DNA of 64,000 nucleotides from Candidatus Omnitrophota bacterium. GTDB taxonomy: Bacteria > Omnitrophota > Gorgyraeia > Gygaellales > Profunditerraquicolaceae. A model generated the notes under the pieces. That model did no database searches. It worked only from the letters and a program-made list of their open reading frames with translations, and was not told the DNA's origin. Both the position numbers and the translations under genes were made by a program. Shown piece after piece: positions 16,937-21,419 of the stretch. Numbering within the stretch: the stretch's first letter is position 1; each line of letters starts with the position of its first letter. The stretch lies in NCBI GenBank assembly GCA_028712255.1, contig JAQTQJ010000003.1:7173-71172 (forward strand), written 5' to 3'.

Positions 16937-17380
16937 TTATCTCTTGTTATATATCTCTTGTTCGGGTGACACACCGGTCACTACCTCTGGTGACACCTGT
17001 GTCACTACTCCAGTGACAGCCCTGTCACTGGTGACATCAATGTCACTACTTGGTTGTGGATAACTTTTCACTCCTGAAATATTAAGCAGCTTATAAATAT
17101 TCGGCTTACCCTTCTTCCTCTCAATCGCAACAGCCTTCAACCGCTCCAGCTGCTTTACTGCCCGCATGATCGTGCGCCGGGATACTCCGCAGTGATATGC
17201 CAATGTGGTAACAGACGGAAAACAGTCCTGCGCCTTAAAATTAGCGTAATAACAAAGCCATGAATAAACAGCAACGCCCATTGTCCCGGCATTCTCGCTA
17301 ATGAGTCTTAATGCTGCCTTATCTATCCAAAGGAATTTGCCGTCGCGCAAATCCCTGATATCTATCTTTTCGTTTCCCAT
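16937..17380 (-). CDS. HTH DNA-binding protein, candidate replication initiator (lambda O-like / replisome organiser N-terminus)
   Basis: N-terminal winged-helix/HTH (LAYHCGVSRRTIMRAVKQLERLKAV). The iteron array lies within its own coding sequence. Confidence 0.4.
   Translation of the reverse strand: MGNEKIDIRDLRDGKFLWIDKAALRLISENAGTMGVAVYSWLCYYANFKAQDCFPSVTTLAYHCGVSRRTIMRAVKQLERLKAVAIERKKGKPNIYKLLNISGVKSYPQPSSDIDVTSDRAVTGVVTQVSPEVVTGVSPEQEIYNKR
16966..17046. repeat. Four tandem dyad iterons GTGACA-N5-GTCAC (~20-bp period) inside the 3' end of the HTH gene, followed by an AT-rich region
   Basis: GTGACAcaccgGTCAC / GTGACAcctgtGTCAC / GTGACAgccctGTCAC / GTGACAtcaatGTCAC. Directly 3' of the array the direct repeat atctcttgtt occurs twice (16939-16962) in an AT-rich stretch. 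Confidence 0.6.
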
Positions 17381-17643: not shown

Positions 17644-17826
17644 TTACCGCCTTCCAATGATTAAAATAATACCGATAAGGATCGACGAAATTACAAAGAG
17701 CCAAATCAGCATCCTTATGAATTCTTTTGGATCCTTGCCAAACGGCCGATTTGCCTCGGCAAGTTTATCGCGGTTATACCAGCTCAAGCCTTTATAGAGT
17801 TTATTTAGTCCCTGAGTAACTTTCAT
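17644..17826 (-). CDS. Small membrane protein
   Basis: 60 aa with one C-terminal hydrophobic helix. Overlaps its neighbour by 4 bp. Confidence 0.3.
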   Translation of the reverse strand: MKVTQGLNKLYKGLSWYNRDKLAEANRPFGKDPKEFIRMLIWLFVISSILIGIILIIGRR

Positions 17827-18098
17827 GGCTCCTCGCCCCTCCTTATTCTTTCCACGGTAAATTTATCCTCGCCAAGCTTGCGGGTCATTATTCCGATAAA
17901 TATCTGAGCAATGTATTCGCCTACATCGCTAGAGGTATCAATAGCTATCTTGTCATTTGTGGCTAGATAGCTGGTATGAAGCCTTACCCGTGCCTGGCCA
18001 AAGTTGTATTCAGCGGTTTCAATCGCGCGGGCTATCTCTTTCTCAATAGCTTTCTTGCCTATCTTTTCCTGGAATTTGAACTTGCATATATCGGTCAT
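17823..18098 (-). CDS. Hypothetical protein expressed from promoter/operator repeat copy A
   Basis: 91-aa ORF whose start is ~20 bp downstream of the conserved promoter element. Confidence 0.35.
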   Translation of the reverse strand: MTDICKFKFQEKIGKKAIEKEIARAIETAEYNFGQARVRLHTSYLATNDKIAIDTSSDVGEYIAQIFIGIMTRKLGEDKFTVERIRRGEEP

Positions 18099-18115
18099 TT
18101 TCTTTGCCTCTATAT

Positions 18116-18148
18116 ATGTATACAGATTTTTTTCTTAAACTGTCACAC
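18116..18148 (-). promoter_or_regulatory. Promoter/operator repeat copy A (-35 GTGACA, 18-bp spacer, -10 TATACA)
   Basis: The 33-bp block atgtatacagatttttttcttaaactgtcacac is nearly identical to 19081-19113. It lies upstream of 17823-18098 on the minus strand. Confidence 0.5.
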
Positions 18149-18160
18149 CTCGTGTAAGAA

Positions 18161-18733
18161 TTATTTCAGGTAGTCCCTTAGTCCCTCCTTTTCAAAGAGT
18201 TCTCTTATCCGAGCTATCTCACGATGAATAATCATTCTATGTTTATTAAGCTGCCTAGAGGCCTCGCTGATAGTCAGGCCTTCTTCGCCAAGCAGCTTGC
18301 ATAATTTCTGTTGCTGCGGAGTAAGCTTCTGGTAAACTCTGGAAAGTTCTAACTTGAGTTCAGACTTAATTTGCGGCAGGACATCATCGCTTTCAGCGAG
18401 TTTGTCTTTTAAGGCAGGCTCATCTTCATTGTCATCAAAGGGTTCATCCAGGGATACGCTTTCGTAAAACGCCCTCCTTTTATCAGCATTGGCTTTCTCG
18501 GCAAGATTGATAAGCATATTCCTAACAACCTCAGCCATATATGTCCTTTTTGAAGCGCCACGTTTTGTATCGTAGCGATCGCGGACCTCAAGCCAGTGCA
18601 TAAGACATTCCTGCAATAAATCGTCCAATCCTTCACGCGCCAAATATGTGTGCTCTTTTCTGTAATCATTAATAACTTTCTTGGCAACTGCAATCTCCCA
18701 ACTCTCAAATAAACCTCCGTAATTGAGACTCAT
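18161..18733 (-). CDS. RNA polymerase sigma factor, sigma-70 family (ECF-like, regions 2 and 4)
   Basis: 190 aa. Region 2-like segment (RDRYDTKRGASKRTYMAEVVRNMLIN) and a C-terminal region-4 HTH (LTISEASRQLNKHRMIIHREIARIRE). Confidence 0.6.
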   Translation of the reverse strand: MSLNYGGLFESWEIAVAKKVINDYRKEHTYLAREGLDDLLQECLMHWLEVRDRYDTKRGASKRTYMAEVVRNMLINLAEKANADKRRAFYESVSLDEPFDDNEDEPALKDKLAESDDVLPQIKSELKLELSRVYQKLTPQQQKLCKLLGEEGLTISEASRQLNKHRMIIHREIARIRELFEKEGLRDYLK

Positions 18734-18849
18734 GAGACACCTCCTTTTTTTATTTCTTGAGGTGTCTTTAAATGAGCCCTAACTAACGTTAGCCCTTTAA
18801 AACTATGAAGTAAATCACGGAGGTCTCATAAATATATAAAGAGATACCG

Positions 18850-19065
18850 CTATTTGTGCCTTTTTACTTTCGTAAGATCATCGATTCCAAACAGCTCTCT
18901 TTGCGTTGGCTCTCTGCCCAGGATGCCGGTTAAAACTTTTATCACTGCCTCGCAGAGTTTTCTATTTCGCTGCTCTCTCTGTGAAGGCGAAAGGTTCTTC
19001 GCGTAAACCACCTGAATCCGGTCCCCGAATCGCTTATTAAAATCGCCTTTTATCCCTCGTGCCAT
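18850..19065 (-). CDS. Small hypothetical protein expressed from promoter/operator repeat copy B
   Basis: 71-aa ORF with GGGAG 8 nt upstream of the ATG. Confidence 0.35.
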   Translation of the reverse strand: MARGIKGDFNKRFGDRIQVVYAKNLSPSQREQRNRKLCEAVIKVLTGILGREPTQRELFGIDDLTKVKRHK

Positions 19066-19080
19066 ATTTGCTCCCTACAG

Positions 19081-19123
19081 ATGTATACAGATTTTTTTCT
19101 CAAACTGTCACACTCCTGTGACA
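19081..19123 (-). promoter_or_regulatory. Promoter/operator repeat copy B with the perfect dyad TGTCACA-ggag-TGTGACA overlapping the -35
   Basis: Same 33-bp block as copy A. The palindrome is at 19106-19123. Confidence 0.5.
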
Positions 19124-19235
19124 AATTGTTAAAAAAATCGGTATATACATATAGAGGCATCGATTCCTCTTGACTTGTAGGGGTTTTGTTATAGGGTTGG
19201 GGTGTCCAAAAAATCTGAAAGGAGGTGACTACCAC

Positions 19236-19580
19236 ATGACTGCAGAGCAGAAAAAGAAAGACCGTGAGTTTTTGCATAAGCTTCATGCCAAGCATTACGG
19301 CAAGAAGAAAACAAAAGTTCAAAAAGCCAAAGCGCCGGTCGATAATTCTCCGTCGCCTAAGGAAGGTATTGTCTTAGCGGCAGGCAGCACGCGCAACGAA
19401 CTAATGCTGACGGCTAAGCAGCGCGGAGTTAAGAATTTCCGGGTGCTTAACAAGCAGGAACTCGCCGACGTTCTCAAGAACATCGGCGATCAGAAAGCTG
19501 TTGATGCTATTGTGGCCGGGGCTGTGGCCAGATGGAAGGCTGGCTGGGGCAAAGGCAAAACGCGGAAAGCCCAGGCATAG
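19236..19580 (+). CDS. Lys-rich small protein with a Rho-N/SAP-like motif
   Basis: AAAGGAGGTG lies 7 nt before the ATG at 19236. The ORF-track start at 19170 is likely spurious. It is transcribed divergently from the early minus-strand genes. Confidence 0.4.
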   Translation: MTAEQKKKDREFLHKLHAKHYGKKKTKVQKAKAPVDNSPSPKEGIVLAAGSTRNELMLTAKQRGVKNFRVLNKQELADVLKNIGDQKAVDAIVAGAVARWKAGWGKGKTRKAQA

Positions 19581-19652
19581 CTATTCTTAGCCGCCAGGCA
19601 GAAGATACTCCTCTGCCTGGCGGATGCCTGCACTCAAATGTGGTAGAAATCT

Positions 19653-21419
19653 ATGATCATAAAACCTAAGACAGATAAAACAACCAACAAAAAACGATAC
19701 GTTATCTATACGCGCTGCTCCACTGACGACCAGGCCCAGGGAGACTTTACCACCTTGGACAGCCAGGCTTATCACTGCAAGAACTTGCTGGACGCCTTTG
19801 GATACGAGCTCGCCAAGATAGGCAACAAAGGCCGAATAGACGATGACGGATACTCCGGCAAGGATCTCAACCGGCCCGGCATCCAGACGATTATCGACCA
19901 TGTGCGTAAAGAAACTGCCCCTTTTGATGGAATAATCTTCTTCCGCCTTGACCGCCTAACCCGGAATACCCGTGACCTCTACTGGCTTATTGATCTATTC
20001 AACTCCAAAGAGATCTCTTTCGTATCCGTACGCGAGAATCTTGACAGCTCAACCGCCATAGGCAGAGTGGTCATTGGTATACTTGGGATCTTGTCAGCCT
20101 TTGAGCGGGAACTCACCGGCGAGCGTGTGAAAGCCTCTTGCATAGCGCGTGTTCGCCAAGGCAAGTGGGTTGGCGGGATGCTGCCTTATGGATATAAGCT
20201 TATACCAGACGGACAACCTCTGCCTAACGGCCGCCAGCCACACAAGATCGTCCTTGATGAGAAGACATCTCTCCATCTTAAAGCTATCTGGGAGATGGCC
20301 GCAGATAATAAATCGCTTACGCAGGTAGGTCTTGAACTACATAGGCGCGGGCTAAAAACTCTAAACGGCAAGGAATGGCGCAGACAGGTTATCTCAAGGA
20401 TCTTAAAGAATCCCTTCTATAAGGGCTACATCCAGTACAGCGGAGAGTATCATAAAGGCACTCATCCTCCAATTGTAGAGGAGTGGCTCTGGGAAAGGGC
20501 TAATAAGATATTGAATGCAAGACTCCCCGGCCACAACTTTGTGCAGAAGGAAAGATTCTACGAATACCTCCTAGCCGGTATCATTAGATGCGGCGATTGC
20601 GGAAGCCATATGGTCTGCAATTTCTCAGGTGGCCGTGGCCGGAGAAAGTTCTTTTATTATGAATGCAGCCGCTCCAAACAGGCCCTGGGATGCAAGGCTG
20701 CGCGCATCTCAGCAACCACCTTTGACAAAGCCATAATCGATTATTTCAGGCGGGCATCCAAGGACAAAAACATTATCATAAAGGCCCTTGGGGACGCAAT
20801 GCTTGAGTCGCAGGCAAAGCTTAAAAAGATAGAAGCGGATCTTAAAGAAAAGGAAGCCAAACTAAATGGCTTCCGGCACCAGGCCAATAAGCTGCTGGAA
20901 TTGGCCATGGGTAACACAGTAACCAAAGGCTCAACCTATAAAGACAAAATGGCCGAATTGGAAACTGAGATCGTAAAGCTGGAAGACGAAATAGACAAGC
21001 TGCAGGCCCAGAAGAGAGTCACCAGCATAAACGCCTCCTCCGGTGAGCTCGTATACCGTACCATGGGCTTTGCCATCCAGCACCTCGAAGATGCCCCTCC
21101 GGAAGCCCAGAAAAGCCTTATTCAGGCCTTGATTAAGGATATCTATGTCTATAGCGACCGGTTGGTAATCAATATGTATATTGATGAGCCGCTGGAAAGC
21201 ATCCTCCCCACCGAAATAGCCTCTACAAACGAAAAGCGCCCTACAGAAGCCTGTAAGGCGCTTGCATCCACTGTATCGCTACCCGGAGTTTCGGATAGTT
21301 GTCAACAATGGCTGCCCCGCTTGGACTCGAACCAAGATAGTCAGATCCAGAATCTGAAGTCCTACCGATTAGACGACAGGGCAAATGTGTTAGAAAGTAT
21401 ATCGTGGATAAAAAGTTAA
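19653..21419 (+). CDS. Large serine recombinase (phage integrase)
   Basis: N-terminal resolvase catalytic domain (YVIYTRCSTDDQ), a recombinase domain, a zinc-ribbon-like Cys cluster (CGDCGSH...C) and a C-terminal coiled coil. 588 aa. Confidence 0.85.
   Translation: MIIKPKTDKTTNKKRYVIYTRCSTDDQAQGDFTTLDSQAYHCKNLLDAFGYELAKIGNKGRIDDDGYSGKDLNRPGIQTIIDHVRKETAPFDGIIFFRLDRLTRNTRDLYWLIDLFNSKEISFVSVRENLDSSTAIGRVVIGILGILSAFERELTGERVKASCIARVRQGKWVGGMLPYGYKLIPDGQPLPNGRQPHKIVLDEKTSLHLKAIWEMAADNKSLTQVGLELHRRGLKTLNGKEWRRQVISRILKNPFYKGYIQYSGEYHKGTHPPIVEEWLWERANKILNARLPGHNFVQKERFYEYLLAGIIRCGDCGSHMVCNFSGGRGRRKFFYYECSRSKQALGCKAARISATTFDKAIIDYFRRASKDKNIIIKALGDAMLESQAKLKKIEADLKEKEAKLNGFRHQANKLLELAMGNTVTKGSTYKDKMAELETEIVKLEDEIDKLQAQKRVTSINASSGELVYRTMGFAIQHLEDAPPEAQKSLIQALIKDIYVYSDRLVINMYIDEPLESILPTEIASTNEKRPTEACKALASTVSLPGVSDSCQQWLPRLDSNQDSQIQNLKSYRLDDRANVLESISWIKS

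Follow-up and report, generated by a model that had tools for sequence, protein, structure and literature searches.

The 64 kb of Omnitrophota DNA analysed here (the window, which all window-wide scans cover) holds a tailed prophage of an Omnitrophota metagenome-assembled genome (MAG), integrated at a tRNA-Gln gene. Its control region carries repeated promoter-like cassettes on either side of a sigma-factor gene, which raises the question of what reads them; the original prediction had allowed this gene to be either the regulator or the regulated gene. Comparison with related loci makes it likely that the cassettes, of which there are three, are cognate promoters of the element-encoded 190-residue sigma factor (18161-18733), a protein of the extracytoplasmic function (ECF) type. 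Both roles very probably apply: the gene would be the regulator and, through copy B, the cassette ahead of the sigma operon, also a regulated gene.

The two copies of the block ATGTATACAGATTTTTTTCT(T/C)AAACTGTCACAC, at 18116-18148 and 19081-19113, differ at one position and start 965 bp apart, in agreement with the earlier description of a block of about 33 bp present twice at a distance of about 0.97 kb. With up to three mismatches allowed, the window contains only these two matches and 100 dinucleotide-preserving shuffles contain none, and a repeat finder extends the ungapped similarity to 39 nucleotides (nt; 18110-18148 versus 19075-19113). Read on the minus strand, both copies consist of TGTGACA, an 18-nt spacer with an A-tract and TATACA, which ends 18 nt (copy A) or 16 nt (copy B) ahead of the ATGs at 18098 and 19065. 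The proposed promoter geometry of GTGACA, an 18-nt spacer and TATACA, with each copy ahead of a gene, is thus borne out. A third cassette, TGTGACA-N18-TATATA...ATATAGAGGCA (also written TGTGACA-N18-TATATA-CATATAGAGGCA), lies on the plus strand at 19115-19159; the repeat finder pairs 43 nt of it with copy A at 81% complementarity.

A weight matrix trained on 25 distinct copies from relatives gives the three cassettes scores of 59, 56 and 46 bits (46 for cassette C). The maximum over 20 shuffles is 12.9, and cassette C read with a 2-nt shift, which is not an independent site, scores 4.5 bits. Since the next independent site in the window reaches only 0.2 bits, the number of cassettes is exactly three, with A and B pointing leftward and C rightward; the matrix finds no further one along the 18-kb minus-strand gene array or in the 42 kb of host DNA. 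The idea of a pair of co-regulated promoters evidently stands as far as co-regulation is concerned, but the count does not, the third, inverted cassette having been overlooked.

18105-18148, minus strand: cassette A (P_A), with TGTGACA at 18141-18147, an 18-nt A-tract spacer and TATACA at 18117-18122.
19075-19113, minus strand: cassette B (P_B), with TGTGACA at 19106-19112, an 18-nt spacer and TATACA at 19082-19087.
19115-19159, plus strand: cassette C (P_C), with TGTGACA at 19117-19123, an 18-nt spacer and TATATA at 19142-19147.

Cassette A begins 13 nt past the sigma stop codon, with no terminator between them, and heads a gene for a 91-residue protein together with the rest of the minus-strand array, ~18 kb of genes for replication and the virion. 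Cassette B heads a gene for a 71-residue protein and the sigma gene, and cassette C, divergent from B, heads an operon of a gene for a 114-residue protein and a serine integrase. The order rightward from P_C is accordingly a conserved box, the 114-residue protein and the integrase; leftward from P_B it is the 71-residue protein, sigma, P_A, the 91-residue protein and then replication, packaging, head and tail genes. This siting is promoter-like, as had been proposed: it includes the only divergent intergenic region, and position and sequence are conserved in about 100 related loci.

18161-18733, minus strand: sigma factor, 190 residues, with sigma-2 and sigma-4 domains, an acidic linker and the region-4.2 helix ...NKHRMIIHREIARIR...

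The sigma factor contains sigma-2 and sigma-4 only, and its 190 residues fall within the ~170-220 expected of a two-domain protein. It matches Pfam Sigma70_r2 (E = 5e-7), Sigma70_ECF (20.8 bits, just short of the cut-off of 21.1), TIGR02937 (50.5 bits, above the cut-off of 42.9) and, in PHROG, only generic sigma-factor families (phrog_1740/351); the region-4 helix-turn-helix is aligned and conserved, and no specific ECF subfamily or NCBIfam model was reached. A search of 1.84 billion representative sequences gave 850 relatives at E <= 1e-3 and 281 at E <= 1e-10. In 50,697 phage records tblastn found only two partial matches (26-36% identity), both in unannotated faecal contigs, and 72,556 plasmid records contained no close relative. 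A literature search found no description of such a sigma factor in prophages or integrative and conjugative elements, nor of Velamenicoccus prophages.

With the sigma protein as query, 112 related loci were fetched (three IMG/VR contigs, 29 GTDB genome loci and 80 metagenome loci from JGI), of which 106 were usable, spanning sigma identities of 41-95% and GC contents of 0.41-0.66. The genome loci comprise two Candidatus Velamenicoccus archaeovorus LiM prophages, several Omnitrophota MAGs and a Rhodocyclales/Sulfuritalea/Burkholderiales clade at 42-46%; the two related LiM prophages (L004 and L006) are ~48 kb apart. An exact-pattern scan of IMG/VR with TGTGACA-N7-AAAAAAATC-N-GTATA, a pattern that was too strict, gave no match.

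The cassette occupies the same three places in all Omnitrophota-type loci. In the wider set, the bipartite motif NNN(G/C)ACA-N17-(G/A)(T/A)AT is found 7-21 nt past sigma in 95 of the 106 loci, divergently upstream in 95 and ahead of the sigma operon in 54, the phage-type loci, so that the same motif stands before the sigma operon and before the putative targets. The divergent copy faces an integrase operon wherever this could be checked. The gene past P_A encodes the 91-residue protein in 75 loci, ParA in 17 and other proteins in five; judged from these neighbourhoods, the sigma factor is the only constant partner of the cassettes. A recurrent TGCGACA match at +44, on the antisense strand within the sigma gene, presumably reflects conserved coding sequence for sigma residues ~13-15 and was treated as chance.

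In the betaproteobacterial loci, where parA follows sigma in place of the gene for the 91-residue protein, CGACA-N17-GTAT occurs 35 times in 173 kb compared with 0-2 times in shuffles, and all but one of these sites lie directly past sigma or ~110 nt upstream of it in divergent orientation. Loci from Rhodocyclales, Sulfuritalea, Burkholderiales and high-GC metagenomes (L011-L027, L097 and L107-L112) carry CCGACA-N17-GTAT past sigma and a divergent copy ~110 nt upstream. With the sigma unit ahead of parA/parB-like genes in GC-rich surroundings, they look like integrative or plasmid-like elements rather than phages. Over all relatives, three consensus sequences emerge: TGTGACA.tTt...aaAAAA..CgaTATAcAc (53 distinct sites), tGCGACAtttt....aaaAA.cc.aTATacA (38 distinct sites) and CCGACA.tTt........attcCGTAT (77 distinct sites).

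All copies within an element share one heptamer, which differs among elements and partitions without exception by the sigma region-4.2 helix across the 106 loci.

Helix KHRM(I/V)..(Y/H)RE: TGTGACA, in 83 of 87 sites from 30 loci.
Helix KHRS(N/V).YRDV: (T/C)GCGACA, in 43 of 43 sites from 16 loci.
Helix (T/I/K)(P/H/S)R(S/G/A)T.Y(D/E)E: NCCGACA, rarely NTCGACA, in about 50 loci.
Helix VGRATVYREIDRIR: TGAGACA, at all three sites of one locus (L101).
Helix KHRRHLYRE: TGTCACA, at the one visible site of one locus (L066).

The four exceptions among the 87 KHRM-type sites are each a second upstream site, ~130 nt further from sigma. The N-terminal part of the sigma factor is 66-78% identical in any pair regardless of type, whereas identity in the helix-turn-helix is 77-97% within a heptamer type and 52-55% between types, and in a neighbour-joining tree the GCGACA clade is nested inside the GTGACA clade. 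Heptamer type thus follows sigma-4 and not overall descent. An internal contrast is provided by a box beside P_C.

19169-19194, plus strand: invariant box CTTGACTTG-N8-TTGTTATAG, between P_C and the integrase operon, which begins with the gene for the 114-residue protein.

In 53 related loci, which cover all sigma types, each element has a single copy of this box (N8-11 among loci), immediately ahead of the serine-integrase operon in every case. Because the box is invariant across sigma types while the cassette heptamer varies, the reader of the box must be constant and the reader of the heptamer must co-vary with sigma-4. The partition supports the view that promoter specificity is set by the sigma factor, with the -35 element probably read by region 4.2.

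Covariation of this kind is correlative, and it would also arise if another element-encoded, co-evolving activator or repressor bound the heptamer and the sigma factor acted elsewhere or only indirectly. Candidates exist in two uncharacterised proteins, the 91-residue one that accompanies sigma in 75 loci and the 71-residue one that accompanies it in the Omnitrophota group.

17823-18098, minus strand: 91-residue protein, the first gene past P_A, which follows sigma in 75 related loci.
18850-19065, minus strand: 71-residue protein, the first gene of the P_B operon.

Such a factor is nevertheless improbable. The motif keeps its places where the genes for the 91- and 71-residue proteins are replaced by parA or others, the partition follows the recognition-helix residues of sigma-4.2 exactly and the fixed distance of 17-18 nt to a second conserved block is a sigma-like geometry. 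The 91-residue protein, which is identical to one annotated in a Candidatus Omnitrophica MAG, has no family match, and its predicted structure (predicted local distance difference test score, pLDDT, of 92) is a beta-alpha-beta-beta-alpha-beta ferredoxin-like fold with no DNA-binding match and no specific structural match (best PDB E-value 1.8e-3, TM-score ~0.45). The gene occupies the usual anti-sigma position of ECF operons; it gave no anti-sigma structural match, and family searches together with this structure search revealed no recognizable anti-sigma gene. The model was examined for an anti-sigma or DNA-binding role and shows only a generic ferredoxin-like fold. For the 71-residue protein no family match was found in Pfam, PHROG or NCBIfam; its homologues form only 11 clusters, all from Omnitrophota or metagenomes, and its model is of low confidence (pLDDT 69), too poor for a structure search.

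A second alternative is that the host housekeeping sigma factor reads the cassettes as early promoters and that the dyad at the B/C junction is a repressor operator occluding the -35 element, as the original prediction proposed. GTGACA and TATACA do match TTGACA and TATAAT at five and four of six positions with an 18-nt spacer, the predicted perfect inverted repeat is real (TGTCACA-N4-TGTGACA, 19106-19123) and heptamers stand head to head in every phage-type relative. The right arm of this repeat, however, opens the complete third cassette, and the dyad is therefore simply the -35-like heads of two back-to-back divergent cassettes, B and C. Among relatives, 28 distinct B/C junctions have heads separated by a gap of 4 nt (three junctions), 5 nt (three), 6 nt (eight), 7 nt (11), 9 nt (one) or 10 nt (two), whose sequence is not conserved. 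A variable gap of 4-10 nt with unconserved sequence would not suit a dimer on a fixed dyad; it argues against a dimeric repressor site and fits independent back-to-back promoters. Cassette A lacks the second half-site, as had been noted, and the A-type sites of relatives never have a partner half-site.

Other observations also make this alternative highly improbable. The heptamer tracks the element's sigma-4.2 helix across host phyla, switching among TGT-, TGC-, CGC-, NCC- and TGA-GACA with the element's own sigma instead of keeping an element-independent consensus, which a -35 element read by the host should not do. The last position of the -10 element is A, not the key T, in at least 90% of 91 distinct Omnitrophota-type sites. 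A scan with the housekeeping-promoter consensus did not call the cassettes, and the host tRNA-Gln promoter, 2 kb off, has the canonical form TTGATT-17-TATACT. Pfam, PHROG and NCBIfam searches of the 71-, 91-, 60-, 81- and 114-residue proteins found no repressor family of the CI/Cro/XRE, helix-turn-helix or ribbon-helix-helix type.

Further GTGACA...TGTCAC sites, suggested as a search target, do occur in the window, but they are unrelated iterons and not operators. They form four tandem 23-bp repeats (16963-17050), each a GTGACA-N4-TGTCAC dyad, in the 3' end of a replication gene.

16937-17380, minus strand: O-like replication-initiator gene, which holds the iterons at 16963-17050 in its 3' end.

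The iterons remain GTGACA even where the promoters of the element have changed to GCGACA; they were consequently rejected as additional operators for the reader of the cassettes and belong to a different system. Their location inside the initiator gene resembles a lambda-style origin.

That the copies have no role in transcription, and are either a local duplication of recent origin or a signal for recombination or packaging, is extremely improbable: although the 97% identity of the two window copies over 33 nt could on its own mean recent duplication, both the bipartite pattern and its three positions are retained at sigma identities of 41-95% while flanks and spacers diverge, the cassettes always point into the adjacent genes and no further copies lie near the terminase or the prophage ends in the window.

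Several points weigh against the assignment of the cassettes to the element's own sigma factor. The TATACA elements lie only 7-11 nt from the Shine-Dalgarno sequences of genes A and B, which would leave these genes with very short leaders unless the real -10 element is a few bases further upstream. The motif is unlike the usual GAAC/CGT pattern of ECF promoters. An autoregulatory loop needs a starter, and none was found; the betaproteobacterial relatives have no B copy, so autoregulation is not a family-wide feature. With about five heptamer types and ten parsimony changes, noise included, evolutionary transitions are few, and part of the correlation thus reflects shared descent. Finally, the left boundary of the prophage lies beyond window position 1, and a conventional repressor could therefore be encoded there.

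If the cassettes are promoters of the prophage sigma factor, a model of the control region can be proposed, in which we infer binding, transcription starts, feedback and a part in an induction switch from the comparisons above. The sigma factor would bind host core RNA polymerase, its region 4.2 would read TGTGACA and its region 2 would read the conserved (C)(G/T)(G/A)TATA(C/T)A block 17-18 nt downstream. P_B would transcribe the 71-residue protein and sigma, giving positive autoregulation. P_A would boost expression of the 91-residue protein and the ~18 kb unidirectional array of O-like initiator, ParB-methylase, terminase, portal, capsid and tail genes, and P_C would transcribe the 114-residue protein and the serine-integrase operon. 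Once made, the sigma factor would simultaneously activate its own expression, the lytic genes and the recombinase. The loop is probably gated by a leader RNA that masks the sigma ribosome-binding site.

18734-18849, minus strand: sigma leader, 116 nt, an RNA predicted to fold so that the Shine-Dalgarno sequence, AUG and codons 5-8 of sigma are base-paired.

The predicted minimum free energy of this leader is -39.2 kcal/mol (z = -4.5), and none of 200 shuffles folds equally well. In the predicted fold, AAUUACGGAGG in the sigma coding region is paired with an upstream CCUCCGUGAUU that is fully conserved. The leader sequence is conserved in eight of nine relatives with few compensatory changes, and the modelled structure suggests that it may gate sigma translation. 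The parA-linked loci show a hairpin over the sigma ribosome-binding site, CCCTTTC-N7-GAAAGGG, which is unlike the window leader. No Rfam family was found for the sigma leader or the integrase leader.

A broader proposal, that the sigma factor and its three promoters make up the whole lysis-lysogeny switch and at the same time a portable, orthogonal module exchanged across phyla, is doubtful, and it is less supported than the reading of the promoters by the element's own sigma factor. Under this joint proposal the phage would be temperate without a CI-type repressor, and a positive-feedback sigma loop would decide induction; RNA masking of the sigma ribosome-binding site would hold the loop off, and the lytic genes and the integrase would fire simultaneously. 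The unit of sigma followed by its own promoter would move between phages and integrative or plasmid-like elements that carry parA. TGTGACA, TGCGACA, CCGACA and TGAGACA would be natural orthogonal variants set by one or two helix residues.

The surrounding genes accord with a temperate tailed phage. The GC content is 0.45-0.49 from position 1 to ~21400 and 0.35-0.42 in the rest of the window. The minus strand encodes tape-measure, minor tail, major head, protease, portal, TerL and TerS proteins, a ParB-methyltransferase, the O-like replication initiator, three small open reading frames (ORFs), the 190-residue sigma factor and the 71-residue ORF, and the plus strand encodes a 114-residue basic protein and a large serine recombinase.

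19236-19580, plus strand: 114-residue basic protein, the first gene past P_C, with a weak Rho_N/SAP-like motif.
19653-21419, plus strand: large serine recombinase (integrase), with Resolvase, Recombinase and Zn_ribbon_recom domains (phrog_95, E = 1e-106).

The 3' end of the integrase gene overlaps tRNA-Gln(CTG) (21309-21383, minus strand), which marks the right prophage boundary. The Rho_N match of the 114-residue protein (Pfam, E = 0.005) is below the cut-off. Its gene is present in 26 of 51 box-bearing loci; in the other 25 a different ORF, nearly always serine-integrase-like, takes its place, and where the gene is absent the integrase gene nearly always starts 20-40 nt past the box. The box may serve as a promoter for the integrase or as a regulatory site. 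It resembles TTGACT + TGtTATAGG, with a spacer of only 14-15 nt, and its RNA is not stably folded. A terminator/antiterminator pair past cassette C, considered on account of a terminator-like hairpin at 19166-19183, was dropped, as the leader folds no better than shuffled sequences (z = +1.6). A further hairpin lies between the genes for the 114-residue protein and the integrase (19591-19623, plus strand; a 15-bp stem, 93% complementary, with a 3-nt loop); no T-run follows it, and it is thus not a canonical terminator.

The implications, all of which rest on comparative sequence evidence, concern first the phylum itself. The model would be the first regulatory model for prophages of the Omnitrophota, a phylum with almost no genetics; relatives are present in Candidatus Velamenicoccus archaeovorus. 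The comparison also defines a compact family of sigma factors, confined to mobile elements, for which a promoter consensus is predicted. The covariation, in which for example Met goes with T and Ser/Asp with C, amounts to a directly testable recognition code that could yield small orthogonal sigma-promoter pairs of the synthetic-biology kind. A sigma-dependent promoter ahead of the serine integrase suggests how excision may be coupled to induction.

One of the closest known kinds of system is that of the ECF (group 4) sigma factors, for example E. coli RpoE and B. subtilis SigW: their operons are autoregulated, and their usual promoters carry GAAC in the -35 element and CGT in the -10 element. 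The prophage protein resembles them in its two-domain organization of ~190 residues, in a bipartite fixed-spacer promoter and in having a cognate promoter ahead of its own operon. It differs in the window motif, TGTGACA-N18-TATA(C/T)A in place of GAAC/CGT (distant relatives show CCGACA-N15-16-CGTAT), in having no recognizable anti-sigma gene and in being prophage-borne, with phage and integrase genes, not a stress regulon, as its putative targets.

Lytic phages that encode sigma factors offer a second comparison: phiEco32 gp36 recognizes a single element, tAATGTAtA, and phage 7-11 gp47 recognizes GTAAtg-N16-aCTA, each being a middle-gene product that drives 6-8 middle or late promoters (PMC8948821). 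The shared features are a phage protein of the sigma-70 family that directs host core polymerase (here putatively) to new sites and a phage-specific consensus repeated ahead of gene blocks, and the 7-11 promoters are also bipartite with a fixed spacer, as here. Unlike these systems, the present one has no detectable sequence relationship with gp36 or gp47, belongs to a temperate phage with a serine integrase by tRNA-Gln and has only three putative promoters, one each for sigma and integrase.

Promoters of sigma-28 (FliA) have the form TAAAGTTT-N11-GCCGATAA, and many cassettes read GACAGTTT-N10-CCGATATA, resembling both halves of that consensus, a likeness that is a lead only. The sigma factor gives a weak 29-bit match to the FliA/WhiG model, far under the FliA cut-off of 189.6 bits; unlike FliA it has no region 3, the spacing is ~2 nt off and the heptamer varies with the element's sigma.

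Lambda-type phages have divergent early promoters with CI/Cro operators, and the present locus, likewise from a temperate phage, has a divergent control region that separates the integrase/immunity side from the early lytic genes. Unlike lambda it has no fixed-geometry operator, no CI/Cro-like gene was detected in the region, and its conserved elements show promoter geometry and track the sigma gene. The system is of a known type, a mobile-element sigma factor with cognate promoters, and is not a member of any characterized subfamily; what is unusual here is the fixed tri-promoter architecture that includes the integrase, together with a natural set of specificity variants.

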